64,000 bases of DNA from Glaucostegus cemiculus (taxonomy: Eukaryota). A program made the translations under genes and the position numbers. Shown here one piece after another: positions 2,995 to 63,119 of this stretch. Numbering within the stretch: position 1 is the first letter of the stretch; each line of letters opens with the position of its first letter. Location: the NCBI GenBank assembly GCA_976551045.1, contig CDPCPM010000247.1:620001-684000 (forward strand), written 5' to 3'. Below the pieces are notes generated by a model. That model had not been told where the DNA came from, made no database searches, and worked only from the letters and a program-made list of their open reading frames with translations.

Positions 2995-3141
2995 CTGGCT
3001 CAGAGTCATTCCGGCTTGTTGCTGGGATACTGCAGGGTTATCTGATAGAAGCTGGTTCATTTTCCCTATGACCAGTTCTGCTATGAGCTGTCTGTCCTCC
3101 TCAATATATTCTCCAATGAGAGGCATAGCACTGTCCATTAC
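2995..3141 (-). CDS. SYN3: Synapsin III coding exon, end of domain C (147 nt)
   Basis: ctactgcag|GTA ATG GAC AGT...AGC CAG|gttagc. Translates VMDSAMPLIGEYIEEDRQLIAELVIGKMNQLLSDNPAVSQQQAGMTLSQ. Confidence 0.93.
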
Positions 3142-3439
3142 CTGCAGTAGAGGGCAGCAAAGAGACAGTAGTCAGCTTAGTAATCAAAGTACGTACACTA
3201 CCAAGAACCTTACACAGCACTGTGAAAGTTTAAAATCACATTCCTTATTCGTCATACTTTTAATATGATTTTAAATTTTTGAATTCTGGCAAATGACCCA
3301 CGTCACTCAAATTGATCCATGCTCCCAAATCATGACAAGAAACCATATGATAGAGTTCCAAATTTCTCTTACCAACTGTGGCTAAAAATGAGAACTCAGT
3401 GCATGGGATTCAGACCAAACATCCACATTTACACTCTCC

Positions 3440-3508
3440 TTTACTGTTGTTGCAATGTGTTGCAGACTTCATGTCATACGTCAGTGATAATAAATCTGAT
3501 TCTGATTA
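3440..3508 (+). mobile_element. Short 3' tail fragment of a non-LTR retroelement (Rex1/L2-type)
   Basis: Ends gtcagtgataataaatctgattctgatt, the same AATAAA + (ATTCTG)n tail type seen on the element ending at ~27267. Confidence 0.45.
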
Positions 3509-4473
3509 AAAGATGAGGGAACTCAAAAGGTTTGAGCTGGACCTGATGATTCAGGCCCATGAGTCTGCCTCCACCATCCACTCAGATCTTGCCTTAACTT
3601 TATTCCATCTATCACCACTTCAATATTCCTCGACTGACCTGAAACGCTAATTCTGTTTCTCTCTGCAGATGGTGATCTGCTGAGTATTTCCAGTATTCCT
3701 TGATACCATTACTAGTGACTAATAGGTGGGATTTTTTTGACACTATGGATCCCAGTACACTGCTGGCATTACTGCCAAGACCAGCAGGCTGCAAGTTGTG
3801 ACAAGACTGTGGGCACAGGACTGTAAGACCTTGGACTATCTTACTGCCTTCTGATAACCTGTGCTGTCAACAACTTTTCATTGCTCCAATGATGAGATCT
3901 TTGGAAACAGTTGGAAAAAATAACTGATGTTAAAGGAATTATTTTTTATATTCTGTAACATAAAACTGCTATTAATTCATGAAACTGGAGAAAGAAAAAT
4001 AAACAAGAAGCTTACCTAAATTTACCTTTCAAATAAAGGCCAGCAACTCAAGAATGGGACTGCCACATGATGAGTCCAGCATCAGTGTGCGATATCAGTT
4101 GCCTGTGCACCTGACCTCCAGCACGTTTCATTTTACAAGCACAAAATCAGGAGTAAGCCATTGTGCACATTGTAACTGCATGCTTGGGTTCACTGTGGAC
4201 CCACTGGCCAGCTGATAGTGTGTTTCCACCCTATCTCGCTCCTGAAAATGTCAATTAACCTAGCAACCACACAGGGAATGACAGTTCCAGATATTCTGGT
4301 GCTTCTGATTTTACTGCTGGCATTACCTCCAGCAAATGTCCCAACTATTAATTAAAGTGTGTGGCTCTTATGGAGCTTATGCCCAAGGTCGCCCAGTGTT
4401 ATGGTGTCAGAAATCCCCCCACCCAGTCTCCCTGTAGCTTAACAAGCTTCTTTTGTATCTTTCCAAGTTTCCA

Positions 4474-4578
4474 AGTTCCGATGAAGGGTCTTTGACCAGA
4501 AACATTAGCTTTGCTTCTCTTCCCGTAGATGTGGCCTGACCTGCTGAGTATTTCCAGCATTTTCTGATTTTATTTCAT
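4474..4578 (+). mobile_element. Penelope-like-derived short interspersed repeat
   Basis: ccgatgaagggtctttgaccagaaac...gatgtggcctgacctgctgagtatttccagcatttt. The same family recurs at ~3662, 12085(-), 14662, 17630, 18338, 24587, 41769 and 55415. Confidence 0.55.
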
Positions 4579-5859
4579 TAAAGTCTAGGGCGCATTGTTT
4601 TTCTGTACCTGCCCCTCCCATTGTATTAAATTCCTTTAAAATTCTAAACCCCAATTAAATCATCTCTCAGTCTCCTAATTTTAGAGAAGTACAAGCCAAA
4701 TGTATGCAACCTGGGCTTACAATTTAACCCTTTAGTTCCTGGAACAAGCCTGCTGAATTGCTCCGTGTGTGCTCAAAAGCCAAAATATCCTTCCTTTAGG
4801 TGAAGTATGACTGAGGTGCCGTGCCTCTGCGGTGTATCCTCGTCTCATTACATTCCAGATCACTTGAGATAAAGGCCAACATTCCATCAGCCTTTTTGAT
4901 TATTTTGGCTGAGTGATTTGTGTACACAGACAACTAAATCCCTTTGGTCTTCCACAGTTCCTAGTCTCTTGCCATTTAGAAAATATCCTGGTTTGTCATT
5001 GTTAGATTCAGAAATGGGGATCAACTCACACTGGCCAGCTCTGAGCTCCATTTGTCACTGTTCTATTCACAAACTAAGCTGCCTATGTTATTTTGCAATC
5101 TCTTGGTCCTATCTAGTCAAGTCTGCGTACTTTACGGTCTGTGTGTTGGCAAGGAAGTCATGACAAACTGTGGCTGAACACAAAATGTTCCAGTGACCTA
5201 TGAAAGGATCCTCTATTACCAAGCTCTGGCACCTCTGTAAATTGATGCACAACATTGCTTATCCTTGCAGTGTGGCAGAAAATTGGGTTTCTGGGGATGA
5301 TTTTATGACTGTTGTTTCTCAGAATGATTACTTGCTAAGTCCCACATTCACAGTGTACGTTGTGGTGTGGGGAGAATGCGCACGGAAATGGTCTGTTCCC
5401 ACCTGGCAGAAGATGCCTGCAGCCCCACAGCAGCCGGCAAATCCATCCCCATCCATCCCACCGGTCTCCAAACACTCGTTCATACAACATCCTGTAGGCT
5501 ATAATTTTGGGATAGATACCAGGAGTGGGAATTATAAAGTAATAATTTAATGTCAAAACTTTACTTGATGCTGAAATTCCACTGAAATCTCTCTGTCTCT
5601 GGAGAAAAGAGGGGGGCGACAAAGAAGGTGAATCTGCATTAAAAGCCTATGAAACTCATCCTGAGTAATCTCAATATAAAACAGTTGGTAGTGTGTGCTT
5701 TTGTAGGACATGCATAGTTTGTTTATGGTGTTCTGCAAATGCAGCTGGAACACCCCCGAGGTTTTTGAAGGGTCCGGTCCATGATATGGCTGCTGGAACC
5801 AGGATGCTAATACTAGGACAACTAGCAGAGCGGCCCTGGAACAAGGAATGGTGGCTGAA

Positions 5860-6127
5860 GAATGAGGGGAGAGGTCGGGTAGAGATGAAGAGGGGGGTTA
5901 GGGTTAGTGGGGAAAGAGGAAGAATGAGTCAGACAGCAAAGAGAAAGGAAAAGGGGGTGAGCGAGGAGAGAGAGGCAAGGGAGAGAAGGGGAGTCAGAAA
6001 AGGAGAAGGAGAGAGAGGAAGAGAGCAGGGGGCTGTGAGGAGGGGTGTGCTGAGGAGGAAAAGAACTAGGCAAGGCCTCTGAAGAGGGAAAGGATTGGTG
6101 AAGTGGGATGAGGAAGAACTGTGAGAG
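5860..6127 (+). repeat. Purine-rich (G/A) low-complexity tract running into the assembly gap
   Basis: Strongly G/A-biased plus strand (gagagagaggcaagggagagaaggggagtcagaaaaggagaagg...). Confidence 0.8.
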
Positions 6128-6477
6128 NNNNNNNNNNNNNNNNNNNNNNNNNNNNNNNNNNNNNNNNNNNNNNNNNNNNNNNNNNNNNNNNNNNNNNNNN
6201 NNNNNNNNNNNNNNNNNNNNNNNNNNNNNNNNNNNNNNNNNNNNNNNNNNNNNNNNNNNNNNNNNNNNNNNNNNNNNNNNNNNNNNNNNNNNNNNNNNNN
6301 NNNNNNNNNNNNNNNNNNNNNNNNNNNNNNNNNNNNNNNNNNNNNNNNNNNNNNNNNNNNNNNNNNNNNNNNNNNNNNNNNNNNNNNNNNNNNNNNNNNN
6401 NNNNNNNNNNNNNNNNNNNNNNNNNNNNNNNNNNNNNNNNNNNNNNNNNNNNNNNNNNNNNNNNNNNNNNNNNNNNN
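6128..6477. other. Assembly gap (350 N)
   Basis: Run of n characters inside a SYN3 intron. Exon phases on either side are compatible, so no coding exon needs to be hidden in it. Confidence 0.99.
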
Positions 6478-8940
6478 CTGTACTCTCGCCATTGGATTAT
6501 GACCTCATTCCGTCACATTCAAAGAAAACATTATAGGCATTTTCCAGAAGAAAAAATAGTAGCAGCTCTACCAATGCAATTTGTTTTTCCATTGATGCTA
6601 GCAACAACTTTCAACAGCAGTTACTCCCTTCCAGCTTGCTCCACGAAAGACTCACTCTTTAGCCCCCAAAAGAACAACATTCAGTACAAAATGTGTTAAC
6701 TCTTCCAAGACTTCAGCAGTAATGTAATCATTGCAAGTCATAATAGGCTGCATTTAATACTGAGCAAAGGAATGATGTGTTACATGCAGTGCTCACAATA
6801 ACTACCTAACTATTTAGGCAAATGGGGGTTACTGCCATCTATACAAATTTATAACAGCAATCGACTATCTTCAGTTACAAGCATAAAGGGCTGGGATTAG
6901 GAACAGCATCTGATTTATGCTAAGGCAAAACAGATAGTGGAAAAGCCTTAGTGGATGCCACCCTTGACATTCAAATGCCAACACTCATGGAGGTGGAAAC
7001 CATTCAGGGACAAGAACTGCATCTGCTTCTTTTCCCCAGTCATATAACATCCAAATTAATCACAGTTTCAGCCTCTGTCAAAGGTAAAAAGTTGGATTCT
7101 ATTAGAGAGGGATGCTTTGAGGTTTTTTTTTGTTTATGTTTGCTAATCCTGCCACAGGATGGCAGTCAAGGATTATTGTTCCCTGTGGAGCTCTGCTCTC
7201 ACACGGATTCATTGTCCACAGTCTCACTGCAGCACCTCCCTTTTTCTCCTCTTCTCATAAAGATAATCTGACAATGAGCTTAATGTTGGAGGGCATCATG
7301 CACAAAACCTGCTATGTTCTCATTGACATCTACATGGACCGAGAGGAACTAGATGTATTACAACATTACCGTTTGTGAATGCATTAGGCTGCCAGCACAG
7401 GAGGCTGATAACAACAGAAGACCATGATGCGGTCGGTGCAAGTATCAGGAACTTGGTTAAATATTGAGGAATACGACATTTAAGCAAATGAAGTGTTTAG
7501 AAAAGACAGAGAGAATAAATAAAGAAGGTGACTAGCTTTAAATTCAGGAACAACTGGCATGTATATATAATCAGTCCAGTAGACGATAAGAGCCACAGAA
7601 TAAATAGCTCTGGGTAATCATTGCCAGACTGAGACATTTCCAAATTTACATCTTGGAGTATGTTCACACAACCTCATGTTTTCATCAGATAGGTAACTCA
7701 TGTCTTTGAGACTACAGGTGTCACCCCCCCCCCCCTCAACTACGGAGGCAGGGGGAGAGTTTGTGTTCCTAGAAAATGGACTATATTGTGATTTTCCATA
7801 ACACAAAGCTGCGTCATCTGTGCATGCATCAAGAAATGCGAGTTGAAAAAAAAATTTTGTGTTGATTTATTTACTTTCTTTCACACAAATTCAGTGAACA
7901 AATTTTATTCCGTATCTCAAATTTTTGGATTGTGATTTGTGAATTCCTTACCGATAAATATCTGTAACCCAAATAGCCATAACATGGGGGTTCCCTGTAT
8001 GAGGAAACAGGAAGGGATGTGCATACAGGAGATTTCAACGTAAGATGTGAAGCTTAACTGGTGCAGAATCAAGGCTAGGTAAATGGACTCCACAATAATT
8101 TATTGATCTAAAGCAGCAAGGAAGCAACAAAGGGTGGTGCTCATATTGGCCTGGTATTAGCCAAGTTCTCAATGAAACTGCAGTTTGCTGGTATAAGGAA
8201 GAAGTCCAATGGCTCTCACGTTGATGGGAGCAGGAATACTGATCCAGGAGGAGGCCTCCAATCATATTTTTACATTTCTCCTGGCCTCACCAAGAAAATG
8301 TTTTCTTTGTGTTTTAGAGTCACCTCTACTCATCTCTTTTAAGGACTACTGGTCACCACCAGAGACAAACTAGAAAGTCACATGTCAAAATTGGATTTGG
8401 GGTTTTGGGGTATTTCCTGCACCAGGAAGATGCCATTTTGGCCTGCTCCTTTAGCGACAGCAGGCAATGATTAGACTGGGAATGGAATAATAACATTATT
8501 AATAATTTTAATAGCATTAGTATTGTCATTAGAATTAATTAGAATATTACGGCTGCACAGAGCAGGTAGACGCAGCTAAAATTGGTACCTAAAATAAAAT
8601 TAAGAGGTAACAGAGTGACCCTTCACAGTTAGCCTGGCAAAACTACAAACTAAATTAAAAAGAGCTTTAAACTGGCAATGAATTGTTATATTCCATTAAT
8701 AGAGTTGGCTTGCGTGAAATAAGCCACTGGTGTCACCCCAATTATAACTTAGATATTCACTGTTAAAATGGCCGCTCTTTTCTTGTACACTGTTGTAAAC
8801 GATCCTTAATTTTAATAATTTGCTTGTGAAACTTCCTGCCAGAAGATGGGCCCACACAAGATGAAAAGGTCTTTTTACCAAAATCAACATTCACAATGTG
8901 AAAATACATTATGAATTGAGATGTGGGCAATCCAACTAAC

Positions 8941-9043
8941 CTCAATGATGTAATCCTTCCCATCTTTCCCATGTACAGCTTTTACCGCGCAGATATCCAG
9001 GCCACCAAACATCTCAGAACAGGCATCCACCCACGTTCGATAG
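8941..9043 (-). CDS. SYN3: Synapsin III coding exon, domain C (103 nt)
   Basis: ctcttgcag|C TAT CGA ACG TGG...ATC ATT GAG|gttagt. Translates (R)[34 protein letters not shown]. Confidence 0.96.
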
Positions 9044-9189
9044 CTGCAAGAGAGTTTCCATTGAAAAGGCAGTTCCATTGAAACACTAGAGCCCTGACCA
9101 CTATCATGCATTCTCCCAGTGTGTTGCAGCATCTCTATATAAAGGAAATTTAATCCCCATTTCCACACATAGAATCTTGACAGCACTTT

Positions 9190-9490
9190 TGGGGCAGCAT
9201 GGTAGTGTAGCGGTTAGCGTAATGCTATTACAGCGCCAGCGACCCAGGTTCAATTCTGGATGCTGTCTGTAAGGAGTTTGTATGTTCTCCCCACGACTGT
9301 ATGGGTTTCCTCCGGGTGCTCCGATTTCCTCCCAATCCAAAACTGTACAGGTTAGGAGCTGTGGGCATGCTATGTTGGCACTGGAAGAGTGGTGACACTT
9401 GCGGGCTGCCCCAGCACATTCTCAGTAACGCAAAAAGACGCATTTCACTGTGTTTTTCGATGTACATGTGACCACTAAATAAATATCTTC
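9190..9490 (+). mobile_element. tRNA-derived V-SINE
   Basis: tRNA-like head (ggtagtgtagcggttagc...ggttcaattc, A/B box-like), V-core gggtttcctccgggtgctccgatttcctccca, and AT-rich tail. A closely similar copy lies at 33802-34083. Confidence 0.8.
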
Positions 9491-10647
9491 TGTTGTTCCT
9501 TGTTCTAATGTTTGTTGTGTTTTCCCTTGGGCAGGTTTGGAACAGGTGTTAAGTAAAATCATAAATCGAGATAATGAATTGCGGGTAGCATCCACTTGAC
9601 ATGAGCTCACTAAAGCTAAATATCACAACATCATTGTAAATAATTTCCACACAACATGAGTGTCTTTTCCCATAGGAATATGACTAAACCTCATGGTGGC
9701 TTTAATATCCTGGTAATGGGTCTGGCAACTAGACAGCACCAATCACCAGACTGTTTCAACAAAATGTTTCGGGCTGATCAAAGTTGTTGCAGTTGTATTG
9801 TTTCTACATTTGAGAGACTGTTTCTGGGCACTAGTCTTAGTTTCCACACTAGTTCCATACTGAGCTAATCTGACCAGAGGGATTACCAATTCAAAGCTGA
9901 TCTCATTCAGTCAGTCTTCCAATATAACTGGGATGCAGTGTTCCCCAACGGAGTATGTATTCAGTGGAAGCAGAAGGGAGTGTTCAGCTTGAGAGATGGA
10001 GTGGTACCTGTGACTCACGCAATTGGATACATCTGCCAATGCATTGGTGCCACTTTAAACAACAGATGTAAAGCTACATGTTGCTTTTTCATCCAAGTTA
10101 CTTTAAAGAGTTCTGAAGAATGACATCTTAGAGGCTTTCACTGTAAAGACTGCATTGTTGATTATTGATAGGTTATAAAAATGAGGCAAATTCCCTCTCC
10201 TGAATGAAAGCAGCATGCTTTTCTAGCCTTCTGCTCTGACTTGCTCCATTTAGATTGTGCATTTTTAGCTTATAAATAATTCTCTTGATTGTGATTATCC
10301 TGTGCAGTTCCCTGGAGGGCCATGATATGAAAATGCCCTACAAAATGAAAATTTACATGGAATGAGACAAACAAACCAGGAACCACCATTGCACCCTGTA
10401 TCCAACCCTGTAGGGCTTGGCTATTGTTGACAGGGTTCATGAAGCAATAACCTATTTTCAAAAAAGTAACATTATTAATCAGATTTCATGGAAAATATTT
10501 GTTAACTCAGGGAGGTTATATTAAATAAATAAGTCTGGGGAAAATGTTGTTAAAAGTTTTGCTCATGGGTTTAATCCTTTAACATTTTGTACAACGTTAA
10601 GTTCTTAATATTTTTCCTGGCCTGGTTTATGTGGTCTAAATTCTTAC

Positions 10648-10722
10648 CGTTCCGTCATGGCCACTTGTTCCAGCATAGCAGAGCCAGTATTTGCTTTCCA
10701 GTTTCCTGAAATTGAAGTCCTC
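10648..10722 (-). CDS. SYN3: Synapsin III coding exon, domain C (75 nt)
   Basis: attttcag|G AGG ACT TCA ATT TCA GGA AAC TGG AAA GCA AAT ACT...GAA CG|gtaaga. Translates [25 protein letters not shown]; KANTG and QVAMTER are SYN3-type, whereas SYN1/2 have KTNTG and QIAMSDR. Confidence 0.96.
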
Positions 10723-12199
10723 CTGAAAATGAGAAAAGTTACAATGAGAACATCACTTTTACGTTTGCAGCTGTATCCTAGAGGCAGAAGTAAAATAACT
10801 GCAAAAACAAATTGGTCACACACAAATTCCCTCTCTCACCTCATATCTGACATGAATAACGTAACTTTTCCTGATCTCATGTGTGAGCTGCTTTGGTGCT
10901 CTTGAGACAGTCACATTAAGGGCTATAATGGTTATATAGCATAGCTGTATATAACTCACCACTCACTCACTTATCCCAATGTTTCTACACTAGTGGCATA
11001 TTTGTAACTGGAAATGTACCATGGTGTGAAGTTCAGGTTTTAACATCCTACCACACAGTGGTCCCAATGAAACAAGTCAGTATGTTGTGTAGCAAGTTGT
11101 CTGCTATGTAAATGACTAACTAGACAGTCCCGTTTTCATTCTAAATTCTTACTAGTGACTCCAAAGAGAAACTTGCAAAATGGCTCAATATTGAACTTTC
11201 TGCGTCATAATCTAAAATATCAGTGGATGTTTCTCAGCTTATCTGCCAGGTGCACACTGGAATTCTAAGCAGCTAAAGATGATGTTAAACTAACCTCAGG
11301 TGTGGAAGGATTTGCTCCATTTCCAAATGTTCTCATAATCCTGTTACATTTTGGGAACCTAATAAACTGTTTGGAATTCTTTCAAATAGCTATCACTGTA
11401 TTAACTAATCAGATGCTAAAGTGTACTGCTTTGCAAGAGATATATTTTAGGTAAAGACAAAGATAAGCCTCCTTACTTATAAAGAAAATTTCAGCTGTGG
11501 TTGTCAGAAGGGCCCAGATTTACATCCAGAAACTCATTCATCCTTCTTTGTCACTGGTTGGTTATCTGATACACGGAGGTCAAGATCTTTTCAAACAACA
11601 GCTCATGAACACATTCCTTTTTTGCTACCTGCAGCTGGTGAAGTTTAATTATTTAAGCAGGATGAAGGACGAAGTAACTGAAGAGGTTCAGATAATACTG
11701 ACTCTTTTGAAGTTTTCTTCCAAAGATTGGCTGAGAGGATTGCCTTGGAAACATACCAACTTGATCATCTTGTTTTAGGATAAAGTAAAAGTACCTATTG
11801 TACAATATCCATTGAGCCCAGGCCTTATAAGAAAGATGACTTACTATTTTATCAATAGGCTTTTCCCCCTTGATTATAGGAAGACCCTGGATGCAATTCG
11901 GTACACTTTCAATATACAATCATTTCAGGAATTCAAAATGTGTTGAAAGCCATAATGTATTATCCTTTCTATTCTTCCTCCCATTTCAGCAGATTAAAAC
12001 ACCAAAACCATAATTAATTTTACCATTTTGAACATGCTTACTTAGGAACATAGAAATAGGAGGAGGAGTAAACTGAAAATAAAAGAAAACTGAAGATGCT
12101 GGAAATCTAAAATAAAAATAGAAAATGCTGGAAATACCCAACAGGTCAGGCCACTTCTGTGTACAGAGAAACAGAGTTAACAAATCAGCTCAAAGTCCT

Positions 12200-12545
12200 G
12201 TCATCAGGAGTAGGCTGTTAGGCCCTTTGAGCCTACTGTGCCATTCAATATTAACACAGTTGACCCTCCATCTCAATACCATACCTTGCTCTTTCTACAT
12301 ACTACTTGATGGCATTTTTGTCTTGAAGTCTATCCACCTCCTTCTTAAATATATTCAGTGACTTGGCCTCCATGACATTTTGTGGTCGAGAATTCCACAG
12401 GTTCACCTCCCTTTGAGTGAAGAAATTACTCCCATCACAATCCTAAATGCCTTATCCGGTATCCCGTGACTGTGACTCCTTTTCTAAACCTCCCATCCAG
12501 AGGAGACATTTTCCCTGCATCCACACTGCCGAGCCCTTGCCAGAT
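12200..12545 (-). mobile_element. CR1-type LINE 3' fragment
   Basis: aggagtaggctgttaggcccttt...agaattccacaggttcacctcc is the reverse of a typical CR1 3' end. It is adjacent to a Penelope-like fragment at ~12085-12180. Confidence 0.55.
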
Positions 12546-12578
12546 TTTTCTATGCTAGATAGAATGTCAGATCCTTAC

Positions 12579-12721
12579 ATGTACGCTTTATAATTGTTCC
12601 CAATCTTCTGAATTCTGATGTCGTACTTGGAATCAATGTAAGGTTCTGTGGTCGCATAAGTTTTTGCCAGGGCCACGACACTGGCTATATCCTGGAAGTC
12701 ATAATGATTTTCAACTTTTAC
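12579..12721 (-). CDS. SYN3: Synapsin III coding exon, domain C (143 nt)
   Basis: ttcttacag|GTA AAA GTT GAA...GCG TAC AT|gtaagg. Translates [48 protein letters not shown]. Confidence 0.96.
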
Positions 12722-14659
12722 CTGTAAGAAACAAATCCAGGCCAGCAGGACAAAGAGAAAGAAGTAAACCTTGTTAGGGGCATGATGAAAATTCATTTCA
12801 TAGATACACACCATTATGTTTCATTGATCTCTGCGACTTCACCCATACCAACATCCTCACGTTCATGGATATCACTGCATAGTTGACAAGAAATATATTT
12901 CTTTCCTGTCCTCAACTACCTTTGCCTTCATGTTGCTGCAATGGAACTACAGGAAGAAGGGCATAAACTAAAACTGAGCGGGTCTTGCCCTTTTGGGATT
13001 AAGACAAAGTGAAAGCTCCCAAGTTACTTCTGCTTTACAGATATCCCTCTAAATCTTTCCTATCCACTACCTGTTGCCTGTATTGCACTGTTGATCTCGC
13101 TATAATGTTTCTAATTCAAGCAACAGTTAAAAAGTTATCTGCTCATTTTCACATTGCCATACATGGAATCCATTATGTAAATACACGTCTTTTTCTTCTC
13201 TATTTAAAGAGATGCAATGTATATATTGTCACATTGGGAATTAATGAAATCTTAATCACAGGGCAACATGAAAGATGACTTATCCACCTATTAGGTTTTG
13301 AGATGGAACAGTTTGATAATACGAATTGAAGAAAATAAAGGGAAAGTAGTTAATGTGTCATCTTGCCAGCCTTCATCAATACCTTTTCCCCCACCTCCAG
13401 GAAGCAAGACAAGTATGAACCAAGGTGAGGGCCATACTTGTAACAAGCATGTAACCGCTGGGCATGTTCTTTCACTGCATTATCAGTTCAGTCAACCGTA
13501 AGTTGAGTTTGTTGAGATTCTCTTACAGAATTATTATTTTTATTTCACAGATGGCCAGTTGTGGAAAAGTGAAATGTGTAATTTCTTGGAATCATGGATA
13601 AGATTCAGTTCATCCAATGACAGAGATCTCTACACCCCCTGACTGGGCAATAATTCAATGACTCACCTGTTATCCACAGCAGATTTTGCTCTGGTTCACT
13701 GAGAATACAAGAACAACTGCTATGCGTCAATGTTCCTGCTTTGGAAATTAATAACTGCTGTAAGACCAGGGGTTTAACACACACTTTTAAACAACTCAGG
13801 TCCTCTCAGTGAAGGGTTACAATCTTTACATCAAATTTGAGGATGCATTGTGTTTTATTTTAGTATTCCTTCTTTTAAATAGCTAGCTAAGTGAGGTGGC
13901 TGAGTAAATTCTCCATTTGGCACAAGTTGGTACTCCAAAGAAATAAATTCCCTAATATCACAATTAAGATCTATATCAGGTACAGTATGTAATCAGGCCA
14001 TTTAGATGCCAACATGGACATCTAGTATTGAAAATTAAATGCATGACTAAGGTGTTACTTTATATTGGCATTTAGCAAAGTTATGTTAAACCTGAATGTT
14101 GCCAAGATGTTGGACAAGACAAAAATAGATAAAGGGATATTAGATCGTTTGGCCATACCTATGATGCCTCTTAGGTTGTTGGGAAAAATAAGAATAGAAA
14201 TTGTGGAAGTCCTGGACTTGTTTTTAGATACAGACACTGGAGGACAGTATTATAAATGTAATACTGATGATGGGGAAGCTTTTATAAATAGTTATCCACA
14301 AGAAAATAACCATTTCAACAAGTATGGACTAAAAAAGGGAAGCCAGCACACTTATATTAAGAGTACATCATGTTTGAATGAGTTTTTTTAATGAGATAAT
14401 TGAGGGAGTAGATAGTTTTTAATCATTTTTCAGGATTGGGATCAGTAGCAAGCCCCACAGTTATTATTTGTCCCCAACCCTAAAAGATCAGGAGATTATG
14501 CTAAATATACACTGGTACCTCGCTTGGTACTCAGGATGCATTCAGAGAAATGACAGAGCTAATGGAACCAGCAAAAAGGGTTCATTATAGTGTTTTATAG
14601 ATTGAGAAAGCTGTGTTACTGATGACACTGCTATGCTGGGAACCTAGCACGAGTCCCGG

Positions 14660-14785
14660 CCCTGAGGCAGGTTTCGACCTGAAACATCGATAATTTCTTT
14701 TCCCCTTACAGATGCTGCTCGACCTGCTGAGCTTTTCCAGCAGACCGTTGCTCCAGATTCCAGTACCTGCAGTCTCATGTTTCCT
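14660..14785 (+). mobile_element. Penelope-like-derived short repeat
   Basis: ctgaggcaggtttcgacctgaaacatcga...cagatgctgctcgacctgctgagcttttccagc...ctccagattccagtacctgcagtctc. Confidence 0.55.
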
Positions 14786-16739
14786 GTCCTCTCTTTTGTT
14801 GCATGCTGCTGTTCTGGGAACCTGACCTGAATCCCTGCCCTCCACTAGCACTCTGACCGCAATGAATTTTCCATAGCTCAGCATGGAGAGACTGCCTTCA
14901 CGGGCGGTGTTGCATGCGCCAGACAAGCAGCACTGAAGCTCACTGCTGTGGGGTTCTGGTTTGTTCCCTAACTGATGGGGCAAGTGCAGGCCATTCCTGG
15001 GGGTGGCAGTGACTGATCCACGTGCTGACTGACTGCCCAGGTCAAAGTCAAGTCGAGTTTATTGTCAAGTCAGAGTCGATCACATCCTCTTGGTGGTGAC
15101 AAAGCTGTTTACTCCCCAGTTCTACGGTAATAAACTCAATGGCCAGTGACCACCACTGAGCTTGTTACCATAGAGAAACCTCCAGGCTGGGGAGAGAGCT
15201 CTGGATCCAAACAGAGGGAGGAGGAGACAGCAGCTTCCATCCCCTCCAACGGAAGTTAATGGGAGAGACAGTGGGACCTGTGCAGTCTGTCAACTCAGTG
15301 GGTGCTGCTAGTCCATGAGCCCCACAGTGCAGTGATGAGCGACCACAAGCGCCCTCATCACAGCATTCCCACCATCTCAGGCAGCCTCTCCACACCGAGC
15401 CATGGGAAAAGTTTTGCTGCAGCAGCTCCAGTAGAGGGTAGGGGCTCATGCCCTGTTTGTGTCTTTGGATGCCTTTTTTAAAGAACAGGGTGCACATAAC
15501 TGTGATTAGGGTTATGTCCAGCAGGTACCAATGTATATAAAACACTAGCCATCCCAGACTGTCTTTCAACCATTCCTGAACAGTAGTCTTGTGGCCAGCC
15601 CAGCAAAGGCAAGAGCTTCTCTGAGGTTATTGTGTGGGAGCAGCCCTCCAGTAGCCACCAAGGAACACGGACACAGTGATCTAACATCAAAACCCTCATA
15701 ATGAAATGGGTTTGGCTATTAAAGTTCAGACCCAAATGCAATAATTTTCAGTTTTTATTGTTAATAAGTGACCCTATACACACTTGTACATTCAAATTTG
15801 TTCTCATTTAGGGCAAATCACAACTTTCACTGTGCTGAAATAGAGTCACAGTCATACAGCAAGGATCATGCCCCTTACCTTGCACTGACCATCAAGCACT
15901 CATTTACACTAATCCTACACTAGTCCCAGATGAGTGTTACTGGTGTGGCAGCTGCTGCCATAGCTGTAGACTGTCATACCTCCCTGAAAAGATTGCTGAT
16001 GCGTAATTTGCACATAAAAAAGGTGCTCATCCTTCCAACTTGCTGCCTATTTTTTTTCATTTATATAACTTGTATTCACACCAGTTCCTAGCCCAGTTCA
16101 CTCATTACAATAATTTATGCTATCTGGTCCATCATGCAGGTTAGTTTAACAAAACTGTGGATTTGTTTCTATTTGATGTACAGATGTGCCAACTTCGTAC
16201 TTTATATCTAGTCCAATGACTGTCTCTTGGTGAAAGCATACATCCTCAGGTTGAAGGGAATCATTTATCTTCAGTCCCTTTTCACTTATTTAGTACCTGC
16301 AATATACTTTGGCTTTTAATATTTCAAGTATTATCAATAATATCACTTATTTCTGCCATCCTCTATCAATGGAGTATTCTCGTTTTCTACTTTAGCCTCA
16401 TCTTCTTCAACTTCCATCTTTATCTTTAACATTCTGTCAAATTACTCCTATTTTGGATATGAGTAGAACCAAGAGCAGGATGTGGTCCCCATGAATAAGA
16501 TCATGGTTGAACTTACATCAACCATGCTTTACTACTATGCCCATAATCTTTGATTTCCATAATGTCCCAACATACCAGTCTTAAACATACTTATCAGCTG
16601 AGTATCCATGGCCCTAAGTATAGAGAATTCTGGAGATCCATAACATTCCGCAATTCCAGTGCACCTATTAGGGCACACCAGAATGATGCAGAAGTGATGG
16701 CGACCAAGGATTAAAGTGAGTAATGCATTTCTATTTAGC

Positions 16740-17325
16740 TTATAAATAGATGTGCTTTATTGGTTCCTGGTTTCAATTGCACAGATATTGGTAAGGCCAT
16801 GCCACAAATACTGTGCACAGGTTTGGTCTCTCGTTTAATTGTAAGCAATCCAGAAGAGATTCACTCGGCTAATTCCTGGGACAAGAGAACTATCCTGTGG
16901 TGACCAGTCAAAAAAGTTACATCTGTATTGCTTAGTGTTTAGAAGAAGGAGGGGCGTTCTTATTGAAATATATAAGATTCTAAAGGGGCATGACAAGATA
17001 AACATTAAGATTCCCAATGGTGAGAGTCTCAAATGACAGGACCTACTTACAAGATAAGGGGGCAGTCATTTAAAATAGAGGACTGTAGGAATTTCTTCTC
17101 ACAGAATCTCAAAGATTTTCAACCCAGGAGGGTTGTGGGGACTTGTTCACTTTAAAGTGGAGATAGATACATTTTTGGAAGATTGGGGAATTGAGGGCTA
17201 CATGAAACAGGCACAGAAGAGGAATCGAGTACTGGGACAGATTAGCCATGATAACATTGAATGGCAGGACAAAGTTGGGGGGTCCAGTGGCCTAATCCTG
17301 CTCCTATATTCTTGTGTTCTTGTGT
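16740..17325 (+). mobile_element. Degenerate CR1 LINE 3' fragment
   Basis: ttggtaaggccatgccacaaatactgtgcacag (LVRPH..YC.Q-like) through ttgaatggc...cctaatcctgctcctatattcttgtgttcttgtgt, a CR1-type tail. Confidence 0.6.
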
Positions 17326-17379
17326 TGAGTAGCTGGGGTGAACAGTGTCCAAGGCTGCTTTTGCTTTGATACCACTTAC

Positions 17380-17442
17380 CTTACCCATACCTGCATGAGC
17401 GTGGCCCATCTTTACAACCACAGGGAATTTGGGAATTGTGAG
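17380..17442 (-). CDS. SYN3: Synapsin III coding exon (63 nt) immediately following the TIMP-hosting intron
   Basis: tttctgtttcag|CTC ACA ATT CCC AAA TTC CCT GTG GTT GTA AAG ATG GGC CAC GCT CAT GCA GGT ATG GGT AAG|gtaagt. Translates LTIPKFPVVVKMGHAHAGMGK; HAHAGMGK is SYN3-type. Confidence 0.95.
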
Positions 17443-40794: not shown

Positions 40795-40903
40795 CATCAC
40801 GTCCATCTGCTACTTGCTAATTGGCTGCTGCGTTGAGGGGGTGGGCAGAGCTAGTGTGTCACTTGTCTAATACATGGTGGGTAGTTATATTCTCTCATTC
40901 AGC

Positions 40904-40939
<36 letters not shown>

Positions 40940-41052
40940 CACTCATCGACTAAAACACTAAAACTATATACAAAGTTTCTTCTACTTTGGTTTCTGCAAC
41001 TCTCAATTTATCAAAACAACTCACTCACCAAAGGAAAGGTCTCTCAGAGAGA
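40795..41052 (+). promoter_or_regulatory. Putative TIMP3 proximal promoter/5' UTR, copy A
   Basis: Inverted CCAAT box (ctaATTGGctg, 40820-40824), GT/CACCC box gggggtgggc (40837-40846), no clear TATA box, then (GA)15, directly upstream of ATG 41053. Confidence 0.6.
40906..40935 (+). repeat. (GA)15 microsatellite
   Basis: Perfect dinucleotide run. Confidence 0.95.
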
Positions 41053-41182
41053 ATGGCAGTTTCCACCACAGCAGCTTTGAGTCTGCTGCTGGCTGTGAGC
41101 AGTGTTCAGTTCAGCCAGCTAACGGAAGCTTGCACTTGCATGCCAAACCATCCTCAAGACGCTTTCTGCAGCTCTGACATAG
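41053..41182 (+). CDS. TIMP3: TIMP3 exon 1, copy A (signal peptide + mature residues 1-17)
   Basis: agagaATGg...GAC ATA G|gtaagg. Translates MAVSTTAALSLLLAVSSVQFSQLTEA/CTCMPNHPQDAFCSSDI, with the TIMP signature CxCxPxHPQxAFC. Phase 1 matches exon 2. Confidence 0.95.
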
Positions 41183-41768
41183 GTAAGGGTTCTCTTTTAT
41201 TAAAGGGCAAAGGGGAAAAGGGGTGAACGATGGTGAACATGTTGGGCAATTGTTGGAAAATATAATTTCTTTTTAACCCTTGCCTGGAATGAAGTCTCCA
41301 AATTTCAACATATCCACCAGTTTTCTTAAGTAATCTGTGTCATTATAACTTGGGTCTTTCACCATTATCAGTTTTTCATTATTAAATACATGATTCTGTT
41401 GTTTCCTTTGATAAACTTTACTTCAGTCCACAATAGCTCAGCGTGATCTGTTGTAAAATGTATTCTGAACTGGTTGATATTAGGGTTAAAGATCAATTTT
41501 TCTGTTCTTTGCCTGAAGATAAGCTATAAGATTTTTCACATCTTATTACACTACAGTCAATACTGTCATTTTATTTAAAAGCTCAGCAGCACAGTAGAGG
41601 TTATGCTTTATTTTACACATTTTCAGCCAGAAAGAAACCATCCTCCCAAACTCTAAGGCAAATAAGTAAAACTTCTCTTTAATGAGCTTCAAGATTAGTG
41701 GGCTTCTTCACTAATAAATTTGATCTCTTTGGAGTGGAATATTCTGGAACAATCATACTAAAGATACA

Positions 41769-42252
41769 AGAGACACAAGACACTGTAAACCAGAGCAACA
41801 CATAAGACACTGGAGGAAATCAACGGGTCAGTCAGCATCTAAGGAGGGAAATGGACAGTTGACGTTTCAGGTCCAGACCCTTCATCTGGACTGAAAGTTA
41901 GAGAGGAGATAGCCAGTATAAGGTGGTGAAGAGAAGGGCTGGAGCAAGAGCTAGCAGGCAATTGGTGGAGCAGGAGCTAGCAGGCAATTGGTAGATCCAG
42001 GTGAGGAGGGGTGATAGGCAGTTGAGGGAGAATGGAAATGGTGCGAGAAACTGAGAGGAAGATAGGTGGATCCTCACCTGGATACACCTATCACCTGCTC
42101 ACCCTTACTCTACCCATTCCCTCCACCTTTTTATATTGGCCATCTCCTCTCTACCTTTAGTGAGGATGAAGGATCTTGACACAAAATGTCGATTCTCTAT
42201 TTCCTTCCATAGATGCTGCCTGACCTGCTGAGTTCCAGCAGCATCTTGTCTG
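41769..42252. mobile_element. Penelope-like fold-back insertion with target-site duplication
   Basis: The two halves are imperfect inverted repeats. Flanked by atactaaagataca (41755-41768) and atactaaaggtaca (42253-42266). Absent from the paralogous site in unit B (44864-44877). Confidence 0.8.
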
Positions 42253-43924
42253 ATACTAAAGGTACAGACAATTTCTCAAATTGTCTCAATTCCCCATACC
42301 AACAGTGAGATTGTGCACCTCTTTCCTGTTCTGTGCAGGTTTTGGAAGAAACCAAATATTGTTCAGTAAGAATTGAACCGTTGGGTGCAGCCTTAGACAC
42401 ATGTTGGAGCAATCTATTCTTTTAGAGAGAAAATTGTACTGCACTTGTACTACACTCCAGCAAGGTTTCAACCCCACACCTACTGTATGCCTTGGACTTG
42501 AATATGCAACAAGAAAACGCACAACAACTTTAATCCATATGGAGAGGATCCAAACATGGAATTGATAAATTTCAATTGAACATTCCGAGAGGAAGAGAAT
42601 AGGAAGGATACAGAAATTTATTAATACTCTGAACTCCAGCGGCACCAGGCATAGGGTTAAAAGCTACTGTCTATTTTCCAATATACAACTGATACTGAAT
42701 TGGTCCAGAGAAGTTCAGCTTATTAATGTTCAAACCACAAGGCAGTAACTGGTTAATCTGCCTGGTCTGGCGATTCAGGGAAATGTTTAAGGTCTTTAGT
42801 TGTATTTGACAAACAGCTGGAAGATCTCTTGGTAATTGACCAACATTCTTTCCTTGAACACACCTAAAACAAAACAAAGTTAACTGAGCATTTCTGTCAT
42901 TTGGGGAGCTAACTGAAGGCAAGTTGGGTCCCATACTAGCGACAAAGCAACAATGACTATCCTGCTAAAACATCATTGAATTCCACCTTTTTCCTAGACC
43001 TCATTGGCTTCCTCTTGGTTCCTATCCAATACCCTATGAGCTGTTTGCTTCCACCAACTGTGTACTTGAGAGCTGCCTTGAGTTGCTCAGCTGGGAAATT
43101 TTACTGACTCTCTGCCTGCAACTAACCTTTAACATGCTATTATGCAGGATGCTGCTGAAAATCACTGGATTGTCTGTTAAATGTGCTGTTAAATCTCTAA
43201 CATGAGGTATATGAAAGAACATGACTGCAGACTAAGCATAGTAGGATTCACCGACGTGGACATTCTTAATTTGTAAGAGCCAACAACCTTGTTCTAAAGT
43301 GAACAGGCAACTATTGTTTATAGCTTTGTTTTAAGGGGTTGAACCCTGCATAAAATTGTGGACCTTTGTGCACAACTGTGGCAATGTGCTGAAGTGAAGC
43401 TCTGCAAACTTCCTGAGACCCATGCAGTCTAATTCGCCATGCCATGTGCTAATGCTCGATTTTTAATTCTGAACAGCAAATATTATTAACATAGCTATTG
43501 AATATTATTGTCCTCTATCTTCTCTCATTAAGTCTTTGTTCAGAGGGTTAAATGTGCTCTTGAAGAGAGGTGAGTGAAGACTTCAAACGCAAATGCATGA
43601 ATCCAAAAATGAAATGTAAGCTAGTGCAACTGAAAGAGTTAATAATGTCAAAATTTCATTTGACCAAACACATTACCTCCCACGGAGATCAATGAGAGGA
43701 TCTGTCTCACAGATATCCTCCCAACAGTGCCTGATGTCAGGCTACTGTCTATGTTGGAAACCACATGTGTTCCCCAACCCATGAAACCCCAAGGAAACTT
43801 CTAAGTGACTTCTGTCAGCATAAGTTGGTTACTTCTTAACTCCTATTGTTCTCCTCATGCCTTTCCACCCAACCCCCCCCACCCAATAAAACCCTATAGA
43901 GGGCAAGGAGGGAGAAGTGGGTTG

Positions 43925-44033
43925 CATCATGTCCATCTGCTACTTGCTAATTGGCTGCTACATTGAGGGGGTGGGCAGAGCTATTGTGTCACTTGTCTAA
44001 TAAATGGTGCGTAGTCATAGTCTCTCATTCAGC

Positions 44034-44069
<36 letters not shown>

Positions 44070-44168
44070 GATCAATCATCGACTAAAGCAGTACAGAAAG
44101 GTTCTCCTACATAGGTTTCCGCAACTCTCAATTTACTCGCTTTCCAAAGGAAAGGTCTCTCAGAGAGA
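43925..44168 (+). promoter_or_regulatory. Putative TIMP3 proximal promoter/5' UTR, copy B
   Basis: Inverted CCAAT (43950-43954) and gggggtgggc (43967-43976) identical to copy A; (GA)15 at 44036-44065. Confidence 0.55.
44036..44065 (+). repeat. (GA)15 microsatellite
   Basis: Perfect dinucleotide run. Confidence 0.95.
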
Positions 44169-44298
44169 ATGGCAGTTTCCACCACAGTGGCTTTGAGTCT
44201 GCTGCTGGCTGTGAGCAGTGTGCAGTTCAGCCAGCTAACAGAAGCTTGCTCTTGCATGCCAAGCCATCCTCAACACGCCTTCTGTAACTCTGAAGTAG
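44169..44298 (+). CDS. TIMP3: TIMP3 exon 1, copy B (intact duplicated alternative first exon)
   Basis: agagaATGg...GAA GTA G|gtaagg. Translates MAVSTTVALSLLLAVSSVQFSQLTEA/CSCMPSHPQHAFCNSEV, 130 nt with no stop or indel and a phase 1 donor. Expression is unproven. Confidence 0.85.
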
Positions 44299-47200
44299 GT
44301 AAGGATTCTCTTTTATTAAAGGGTGAAAGGAAAAAGGGGTGAACAATGGCAAACACGTTGGGTATGTCTAAGGAAATATAGAGGTTCTTTATAACCATGG
44401 CATAGAATGAAATCTCTGAATTTCAACAATATTCACCAGTTTTTTTATATGTCAATATAACTTGGGTCTTTCACCATTATCAGTTTTCATTGTTAAAAGA
44501 CATGATTCTGTTGTTTCCTTTGATAAACTTTGCTTCAGTCAACAATAGCTCAATATGAACTATTGTAAAATGTAACCTGAACGAGTTGATATTGGGATTA
44601 AAGATCAATTTTTCTGTTCTTTGCCTGAAGATGAGTTGTAAGATTTTGCACATATCTTATTACACTACAATAAATACTGTCATTTTATTTAAAAGCTCAG
44701 CAGCACAGTGGAAGGTATTGCGTTTTTACACATTTACAGCCAGAAAGAAACCATCCTCCCGAACTCTGGGCAAATAAGTAAAGCTTCTCTTTAATGAGCT
44801 TCAGGATTAATGGGCCTTTTCACTGGTATATTTGACCTCTGTAGAGTGGTATGTGGAACAATCATACTGAAGATACTGACAGTTTTGTTAAATATCCTGC
44901 TGAAACATGATTGAATTGCACCTTTTTCCCCAGACCTCAATGGCTTCCTCTTAGTTCCCATCCAATACACTCTGAGCTGTCTGCTTCCACCAACTGTGTA
45001 CTCTAGAGCTGCTTTAAATTGCTCATCTGGGATATTTTACTGACTCTCTGCCTGCAATTAATCTTTCACATCAATAATAACATTTGAGATTAGGAATTTG
45101 AAGGGGATGTGCAGTCATGTTATAATGCAGGATGCTGCTGAAAATCACTGGATTGACTGTTAGATGTACTGTTAAATCTCTAATGTAAGGTAAATAAAAG
45201 AGCATGACTGTGGACTAAGCATAGTAGGATTCACCTACACATGAACATTCTTAGTTTGTAAAAGCCAACAACCTTGTTCTTAAGTGAACAGGTCACCATC
45301 GTTCATAGCTTTGTTTTAAGGGGTTGAACCCAGCATAAAATTGTAGACCTTTGTGCACAATTATCAGTCGCTCCCCATTGTTTATTCTGAAACACAACTC
45401 TGCCCACCCACCCTATCTCATCTCACTACCACACTGTGGCTGCATTGCTAATTCTTTACAGGATGTCCTGGATCAATTGGCCAAGGGCACCCAGCCCTTC
45501 ACAACAGCAGCAGATCTAAGTGCTGGCACCTCCTTTTGTCTTTACCCTGCCAAGCATTGTTGTCTTAGCCTCCATGCACTGTGGGTCTCCTGCCAATCCC
45601 CTGCTCCTGCATCTCTAACCCAACCCCAGCAGAAGATGATGCAAAGAAATGTATGTCAGGCTCAGTTAAGTACATGGATCTCGAACCAGAGTTGTCCAAG
45701 GTGTGTTTTCCCCAATTCATTTTGCTCTCCTCACTCCAAATTAAAATCTAACTTAATTGCATGAGAAGTCATCCTTAGTTGACATGGCAAAAACATGCCA
45801 TATGGCAGTGGTTGCATCTTTTTGTTTTTTTTCTCCATTTCTTCCTTCATGATCTTCTAATCCTGCCTAATCCGTGGATACTTATTTTGTGCACTGCCCT
45901 CCTTCCATTAACAGCCCAATATTTTGCTACCCAGAGATAGTGGAGGTGGAACAGCATTCTCCGGGGGACCATTGTTGTTCTCTTCCCAGCGCTACGAAGA
46001 ACTTGACTGAGCATCCTACTGTAGCAATGTAGCTGAGGTGAAGCTCTGCAAATTTCCTGAGACCCAAATAATCTAATGTACCATGTCATATGCTAATGCT
46101 CAATTTTTAATTCAGCCAGTTCCAGAGTCTGGCTATTGCAGCGCACCAAGTACTATTTACATGCTTATTGAATATTATTGTCCTTCTCTTCTTTCTCTCA
46201 CATAGTCTTTGTTCAGAGAGAACAACTGGGTCAAGACTACAAACATAAATGCACGTACCCAAAAATAAAATGTAAGCTAATGCAACTGAAGGAGTTAATA
46301 ATGTCAAAATTTTCATTTGACAAAACACATTACCTCCTACGGAGATCAGTGAGAGGATCTGTCTCACAGATCTCCTCCCAACAGTACCTGATGTTAGGCT
46401 ACTGTCTACATTGGACACCACATGTGTCCCCCAACCCATGAAACCCCAAGGAAACTTCTAAATGACTTCTGTCGGCATGTGTTAGTTATTTCTTAACTTC
46501 TATTGTTCTCCCATGCCCTTCTACCCACCCTATGGAAGGCAAGGAGGAGGGAGAGGTGCATTGCAGATTATTGTGGCTGTGGAATCAGAACATGAAGCTA
46601 GTATTTTTTTATGTAAGAGCAATCAGGCTGGACAAGGTTTTGGCAAGTCACTTAAAAGTCAGCTTTAACTGCTGCATCATTGAAATGAGTTTCTACACAC
46701 AGAATTCCCACTGTGTTGTCAACTGTCCATCTCTTTGAAGTTATTTATTGTATATGAAAAGAAAAATGACTGATCATTACTCTGCACTAGAGCACAAACT
46801 TGGTTATAATTTGCTTCTTTCAGGTTTTTTTTAATCTTTGATATGAGGGGATTTATTAAATTACAGCTAGTATAACAGGAAGCTTCTAGGATAATTTTCT
46901 TGTGGGTTTCCCTATGATTAATTTTCCATTATATTATTTAACAGAGTTGACCTCTAAGGGGGATAAATATCAAAACATAACAGCTTAAACACCACTGGTT
47001 GAAAGCATTTCAAAAGTGCAACAAAGCTTAGAGTTTTGCTCAAGTTAGCAGAATCAGGCTTGATTCAAGGTTTTTGATATTGTCTGAGCATTATAAATCA
47101 CTGTATTGCCCAGTGTATTACCACACTGGAAGGCAATTTGATCTACTCTTTCTTCTCTGAGTCACAGGTGCTCTCACACAACTGCAAATGTGCTTTAAGT

Positions 47201-49739: not shown

Positions 49740-50070
49740 AGTCTGGATTCAATCTTGACATTTAGTGCTGTCTGTGTGGAGTTTGCATGTTCTACCTGTG
49801 ACCATGTAGGTTTCCTCCAGGTGCTCCATTTTCATTGCACATCCCAAAGATGAGCTGGTTGGTAGGTTAATTGGCCACTGTAAATTGCCTCTAGCATTCA
49901 GGTTGAGTGGTAGAACCTGGGATGGAAGGGGGGTGGGGGTGGGGAGGATGGGTTGAGGGGAGTTGATGGTAATATGGGAAGAATACAGTGGCTGGGTATA
50001 AATGGACAATTGATGGTTGGTATGAACCCAGTGAACTGAAGGACCTCTCTCCATGCTGTACCACTCTATT
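49740..50070 (+). mobile_element. Older V-SINE copy
   Basis: tgtctgtgtggagtttgcatgttctacctgtgaccatgtaggtttctccaggtgctcc...ggtaggttaattggccactgtaaattgcc, followed by a CR1-like tail. Confidence 0.65.
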
Positions 50071-59524: not shown

Positions 59525-59607
59525 TTATTCGAGCAAAAGTAACTGGGAAGAAGCTACTGAACCATGGGCCTTTTGGGACAATGCGCTACTCTGTCAAACA
59601 AACGAAG
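59525..59607 (+). CDS. TIMP3: TIMP3 exon 2 (83 nt), single copy in this window
   Basis: ttctttatcttccag|TT ATT CGA GCA AAA...ACG AAG|gtgaga. Translates (V)[27 protein letters not shown], with the TIMP VIRAK motif and the TIMP3-type GPFGT loop. Confidence 0.95.
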
Positions 59608-63007: not shown

Positions 63008-63119
63008 ATGTATCGTGGCTTCAACAAAGTGCAGCACGTTCAGTACATCTATACAGAAGCCTCTGAGAGCCTGTGTGGTGTACGCCTGCAGGTGAACAAA
63101 TTCCAGTACCTAATCACAG
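63008..63119 (+). CDS. TIMP3: TIMP3 exon 3 (112 nt); exons 4-5 are expected beyond the window
   Basis: ttttctcttctttag|ATG TAT CGT...ATC ACA G|gtaggc. Translates [38 protein letters not shown]; EASESLCG is TIMP3-type. Confidence 0.96.

Follow-up and report, generated by a model that had tools for sequence, protein, structure and literature searches.

TIMP selectivity is normally varied through four genes, and TIMP3 inhibits MMPs, ADAM17 and ADAMTS4/5 and binds to matrix. In the known TIMP structures Cys1 binds the zinc and residues 6 and 14 touch the edge of the enzyme, and the change of Thr2 to Ser in N-TIMP-1 reportedly brings a few-fold shift, weaker on MMP-1 and stronger on MMP-3; our literature search returned no passage on a measured Thr2-to-Ser effect. 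According to the sections cited here, the 4 Å interface of N-TIMP2 with MMP14 includes residues 1-4, 6 and 14 (PMC3977929), Thr2 and Val4 sit in S1' and S3', and the T2G mutation of N-TIMP-3 abolishes MMP inhibition and spares inhibition of ADAM17 and ADAMTS (PMC3003256). Substitutions of Thr2 alter the selectivity of TIMP-1 (PMC6769477, PMC9409782), and TIMP selectivity has been engineered at residues 2 and 4 (PMC6769477). For the N-TIMP2 variants S4R and V6R the shift in Kd stayed below four-fold, and specificity moved 1.1- and 1.9-fold (PMC3977929, Table 1). The mapped ECM-binding residues of TIMP3 are K26/27/30/76 and R163/K165 (PMC3369482), and the gene is described as nested in SYN3 (TOGA2 preprint). 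As regards gene layout, the closest described system is UGT1A, with alternate first exons from tandem exon duplication: they are homologous, each brings its own promoter and a portion of the specificity region, and all are joined to common downstream exons (cited section of PMC9013439).

The window analysed here, a stretch of 64,000 nucleotides of the ray Glaucostegus cemiculus, contains a batoid TIMP3 gene with a tandem duplication of its first exon and putative promoter (Table 1). Both exons encode TIMP-type N-termini on the + strand, with Cys1 at 41131 in copy A and at 44247 in copy B. The tandem unit measures about 3.1 kb and is defined by a 983-base block (40795-41767 against 43925-44876, 85% identical) together with two intron blocks of 79% identity; the start context and the phase-1 GT donor are alike in both first exons. 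The layout is UGT1A-like, and the two-isoform TIMP3 is real and conserved. The UGT1A variable part is the whole substrate-binding domain, whereas ray TIMP3 has two copies only, its variable part comprises 17 residues of the reactive ridge of a secreted inhibitor and its promoters are putative. No third exon-1 copy was found in this genome: both matches of the DNA search are 1A and 1B, and a protein search added nothing beyond the first exons of two further TIMP loci and two matches at E>1.

Table 1. Features of the ray TIMP3 gene and its host gene (window coordinates unless a contig is named)
Feature	Position	Strand	Remarks
Host synapsin gene exons, five matches	3052..17442	-	PF02750 search
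Putative promoter with 5' UTR of copy A, GA repeat inside	40795..41052	+	aligns to 43925-44168; promoter role putative
Coding part of exon 1A (26-aa signal peptide plus mature residues 1-17 of the ancestral Thr2 type), phase-1 GT donor	41053..41182	+	
Copy A intron blocks, duplicated at 44893-46530	42958..43874	+	79% identity blocks
Putative promoter with 5' UTR of copy B	43925..44168	+	within 85% identical block
Coding part of exon 1B (signal peptide plus mature residues 1-17 of the derived type at 44247-44298), phase-1 GT donor	44169..44298	+	
Exon 2, common to both first exons	59525..59607	+	AG/GT ends; RNA junctions of related species
Exon 3, common to both isoforms	63008..63119	+	
Exons 4 and 5, shortly beyond the window end	G000:C247:685371 and 685840		

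By sequence and position this gene is TIMP3. The TIMP domain (PF00965) is present, the best named relatives are TIMP3 proteins, and the nearest named proteins are those of rays with Pristis as the closest; the best PDB match of the Pristis B isoform is human N-TIMP3 (3CKI chain B, E 8.9e-66), whose residue 1 served to place the signal cleavage site by alignment. After the signal peptide both exons and all five named B orthologues show Cys1-X-Cys3, His7-Pro8-Gln9 and Cys13. The gene occupies the intron of a synapsin gene that runs from 17442 to G000:C247:690303, in antisense orientation. The CXC start, HPQ, Cys13 and this placement are shared with vertebrate TIMP3, from which the ray gene differs by its two first exons and thus two mature N-termini. 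Copy B has Ser2, Asn14 and Val17 in common with the TIMP2-like exon 1 of this genome (L013), but the loops and the C-domain of the ray gene are those of TIMP3. Copying of the B tip from TIMP2 was rejected because the Ser2 codons differ (TCT versus AGC). At least two other TIMP loci occur in this genome, namely the TIMP2-like gene on C301 (2781670-2832831) and a divergent, synapsin-nested, Thr2-bearing TIMP (G000:C137:3271324-3297465); a fourth TIMP locus was not found in the genome search and the locus count is a lower bound.

Five further rays (Pristis pectinata, Mobula birostris, M. hypostoma, Hemitrygon akajei and Hypanus sabinus) each possess one A-type and one B-type RefSeq isoform, which are identical from residue 44 on in all five pairs. 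The RefSeq entries “metalloproteinase inhibitor 3-like” X1/X2 of Pristis, Mobula, Hemitrygon and Hypanus are this same pair, which is already present as automatic annotation; a literature search, with most subscription journals outside its coverage, found no paper that describes or tests it. The six B N-termini form one clade (support 99/99, branch 0.13, tree of 43 columns). With the branching order of sawfishes and stingrays that we take for the batoid tree, the diverged A/B pair is older than the sawfish-stingray split. The mature part is identical in all six A copies, and Ser2, His10, Asn14 and Glu16 are kept in all six B copies, among which Pristis departs by Thr6, Hemitrygon by Ile17 and the four stingrays and mantas by Arg4. 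Their mature parts show a mean p of 0.071 with every Cys and HPQ retained, and only three changes among them postdate the B stem. Narcine and all 10 sharks and chimaera used are each listed with a single protein, among 15 of the 17 members of the cluster. In Leucoraja erinacea the isoforms X1 and X2 (P0112/P0113) have an identical mature part and differ in a single signal residue, which suggests two near-identical first exons derived from an independent duplication or from the same one after homogenisation.

Exons 1A and 1B are both spliced to exon 2 in relatives. All RNA is from related species and not from Glaucostegus cemiculus; X21 and X22 are RNA on record, X1 and X7 are RNA by guess. In raw stranded RNA of related organism B the junction between 1A and exon 2 (41180->59523, GT..AG) is crossed by 38 reads of X21 and 26 reads of X22. 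With 1B alone as reference, 19 B-type X21 reads exit at 44298 into exon-2 sequence (26 of 30 letters matching) and 14 A-type X21 reads exit at 44293 into exon-2-matching sequence. One B-type contig of organism C (X7) also exits at 44298 into exon-2 sequence, and + strand reads of a relative cover 44088-44168. Interspersed repeats at 41780-42260, 49765-49890 and 55410-55490 gather many RNA reads from elsewhere; the first of them lies in the copy A intron, inside a stretch without match in copy B.

The first-pass annotation had reported that amino-acid differences between the two exons cluster in the mature N-terminus, and a comparison codon by codon over 43 codons gave the same counts. Copies A and B differ in the 17 mature codons by six nonsynonymous (T2S, N6S, D10H, S14N, D16E, I17V) and two synonymous changes (A11, C13), and in the signal peptide by one amino acid (A7V, two bases) and two further synonymous codons. 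Clustering of six out of seven differences in 17 of 43 codons has a hypergeometric P of 0.011, and nonsynonymous changes per site (mature 6/41, signal 1/57) a Fisher P of 0.02, both for a region chosen after the fact. In stingrays and mantas the clustering is weaker, A and B differing at 3-7 of 26 signal and 6-7 of 17 mature positions, and A7V is private to the window lineage since all four other organisms aligned to 1B have Ala7. Pairwise, the mature pN of 0.145 is close to the A-B intron divergence of 0.11-0.13 and dN/dS is 0.67 (N versus S, P=0.65); taken alone, these values show nothing on selection. Gene conversion as the origin of the near-identical signal peptides in the window species is unsupported, their pS of 0.145 being intron-like; occasional conversion may have occurred in other lineages. 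Phe4, a B-like state, is present in the A-type signal of M. hypostoma and Hemitrygon (P0002, P0003) at the position of Ser4 in the A copies of M. birostris and Hypanus, and the M. hypostoma A signal peptide carries Val15 as in B; such residues may reflect recurrent mutation or occasional B-to-A conversion.

Evidence from orthologues indicates that exon 1B is under purifying selection and not decaying. It is intact in all five named relatives and in three further organisms whose sequence across this exon is B-type; stops, frameshifts or an intronic rate, which had been proposed as signs against a functional copy B, were looked for in the B orthologues and none was found. Between the window and organism G (a B-type DNA contig) the intron differs at 13 of 146 sites, whereas the whole exon has one nonsynonymous change in about 99 sites (P=0.01); for the mature part alone the count is 0 of 41 against the same intron sites (P=0.075). 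Organism F has zero differences from the window in the mature part, and organisms C (6 of 11 differences listed) and A (9 of 10 listed) are used descriptively only. Decay or loss of function of the 1B duplicate, or an error of the assembly, is therefore very improbable: the A-B mature pN does equal the intron divergence, but the exon is conserved against its own intron, a pseudo-exon is rejected by intact orthologues and by splicing in the RNA of relatives, and a haplotype duplicate is ruled out because the copies are only 85% identical.

As to direction, sharks and chimaera support the earlier statement that copy B holds the derived state at five of the six changed mature positions. At position 14 the direction is ambiguous, with Asn in 8 of 10 sharks and chimaera and in Rhinoraja and Ser in Narcine, Leucoraja, Heptranchias and Heterodontus, so that the number is five or six. 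Thus 5-6 amino-acid changes fall on the B stem, before the sawfish-stingray split, and 0-1 on A. A three-way count over 142 intron sites (16 A-versus-B differences common with G, six in window B only, five in G only, two three-way) gives a B-stem length of 0.035 (95% 0.003-0.07). From this length 1.4 neutral changes are expected, about four times fewer than seen, with P=0.012 for six changes and 0.033 for five, or 0.05 and 0.13 after four-fold correction (two regions by two branches); the test uses intron sites of one contig and assumes equal rates in A and B. Without polarising the changes P is 0.06-0.36. One-sidedness (B:A) has P=0.03 for 6:0 and P=0.22 for 5:1, and none of the six changes falls on invariant codons (P=0.07-0.11). 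In ordinary TIMP3 of the 10 sharks and chimaera the signal peptide varies more than the mature part (mean p 0.236 versus 0.054), the reverse of the A/B pattern. The B-stem excess is suggestive and points to selection without proving it, being borderline after correction; the overall course is an early asymmetric burst followed by conservation, as in a neofunctionalised duplicate.

For the altered residues themselves, 117 other TIMP3 N-termini were compared. They remain from 148 fetched proteins after leaving out five B isoforms, one TIMP4, one divergent unnamed protein and 24 without readable N-terminus, and they comprise 40 distinct 17-mers; kin among them are not independent. Ser2 is found in 49, Ser6 in 63 and Asn14 in 82, whereas His10 occurs once, Glu16 three times, Val17 twice and Arg4 never. 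The premise of the first-pass annotation that TIMP3 has Thr2 and that Ser2 belongs to TIMP2 and TIMP4 fails outside tetrapods, as Ser2-bearing TIMP3 includes that of Callorhinchus, Carcharodon, sturgeons and most teleosts. By these N-termini the Thr2/Ser2 contrast is a tetrapod rule rather than a TIMP3 rule, and a switch of Thr2 to Ser toward the TIMP2/4 type is unsupported, given how often TIMP3 of the ordinary single-copy kind has Ser2. A stronger candidate for altered selectivity is Arg4, since residue 4 contacts S3'; the exchange of Met4 for Arg is seen in the B isoforms P0001, P0004, P0007 and P0009 of four stingrays and mantas and is absent from the window species. By homology B is changed at three of four non-Cys contact positions against three of ten others (P=0.24), or at four of four when Arg4 of stingrays and mantas is included (P=0.07), an enrichment that is not significant, and the rare states His10, Glu16 and Val17 lie outside the protease interface.

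This locus is a TIMP3 gene with two first exons on a common body, and with a probability of about one half we regard B as a working inhibitor whose tip affinities are shifted few-fold and which probably has its own promoter. Tandem duplication placed a second first exon, with a putative promoter, on one TIMP3 body, and separate promoters would select the A or the B tip. Signal cleavage is predicted to expose Cys1 in both isoforms, and B would inhibit by the usual zinc-binding wedge, its affinities shifted by the early-fixed tip changes, mostly to states that other TIMP3s use. ECM-binding residues and loops are encoded in the shared exons. The outcome would be a TIMP3 retuned for a different tissue or state and not a new inhibitor class. 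Likely the two isoforms differ in their sites of expression and only modestly in their protease range; a modest shift of the inhibition spectrum of B is plausible. The earlier proposal of neofunctionalisation of B thus stands in part: the copy is intact, spliced, conserved and marked by an early one-sided burst, whereas the Thr2-to-Ser switch falls away and positive selection is borderline.

Differential promoter use, absent from that proposal, is equally well supported. In an alternative that we consider possible, though not the favoured one, regulatory subfunctionalisation is all that occurred: the second promoter was kept by selection and the mature changes, functionally equivalent, arose by drift during brief redundancy. 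The upstream block is duplicated and the A:B ratio differs between runs, with depths at matching places of 70:51 in X21 and 62:12 in X22, two runs labelled as one species (P=1.5e-4 when reads are counted and 0.015 when start sites are); contig depths of 675:134 (X1) and 400:446 (X7) are a poor measure. Upstream of the GA repeat the copies differ at 8 of 112 positions (7%) versus 11-13% in introns, and the B residues at contact positions are ordinary TIMP3 states. The Leucoraja isoforms further suggest that two promoters may persist without a change of the tip. Against drift argue the one-sidedness of the changes with none in the signal peptide on the stem, their number above the neutral expectation, the rarity of three B states and the retention of the B changes in all copies except for single swaps at positions 6 and 17.

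It is somewhat unlikely that in sawfishes, stingrays and mantas positive selection shaped a second reactive ridge (Ser2, Ser6 and Asn14, to which stingrays and mantas add Arg4) and that promoter choice switches between two selectivity profiles while the matrix-anchored body is kept. Rather improbable is selection of B for another property, such as folding, stability, binding to matrix or a receptor, or proMMP handling, through His10, Glu16 and Val17. The rarest B states are indeed these three, outside the N-TIMP2/MMP14 contact list, and B has lost one acidic residue and gained a His, plus Arg4 in four species; but the mapped ECM-binding residues (as given in PMC3369482) fall in shared exons, D16E and I17V are conservative, and no known partner is tied to positions 10, 16 and 17.

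Here one ray gene carries two inhibitory tips, which two ray orders have retained. If the isoforms differ in their Ki profiles, this would be a natural experiment on TIMP3 selectivity (MMPs, ADAM17, aggrecanases) in animals with a cartilage skeleton, and if promoter choice does switch the isoforms, a natural isoform-switched TIMP at positions that engineers mutate; if the profiles are alike, the locus is an ordinary example of promoter duplication. Since the A and B proteins differ by only 6-7 residues this is cheap to test. In exon 2, residue 30 is Asn in the window ray and in ten sawfish, stingray and manta isoforms and Lys in sharks and mammals, Lys30 being a mapped ECM-binding residue of human TIMP3; the window exon 2 also encodes Thr24 where relatives carry Val.
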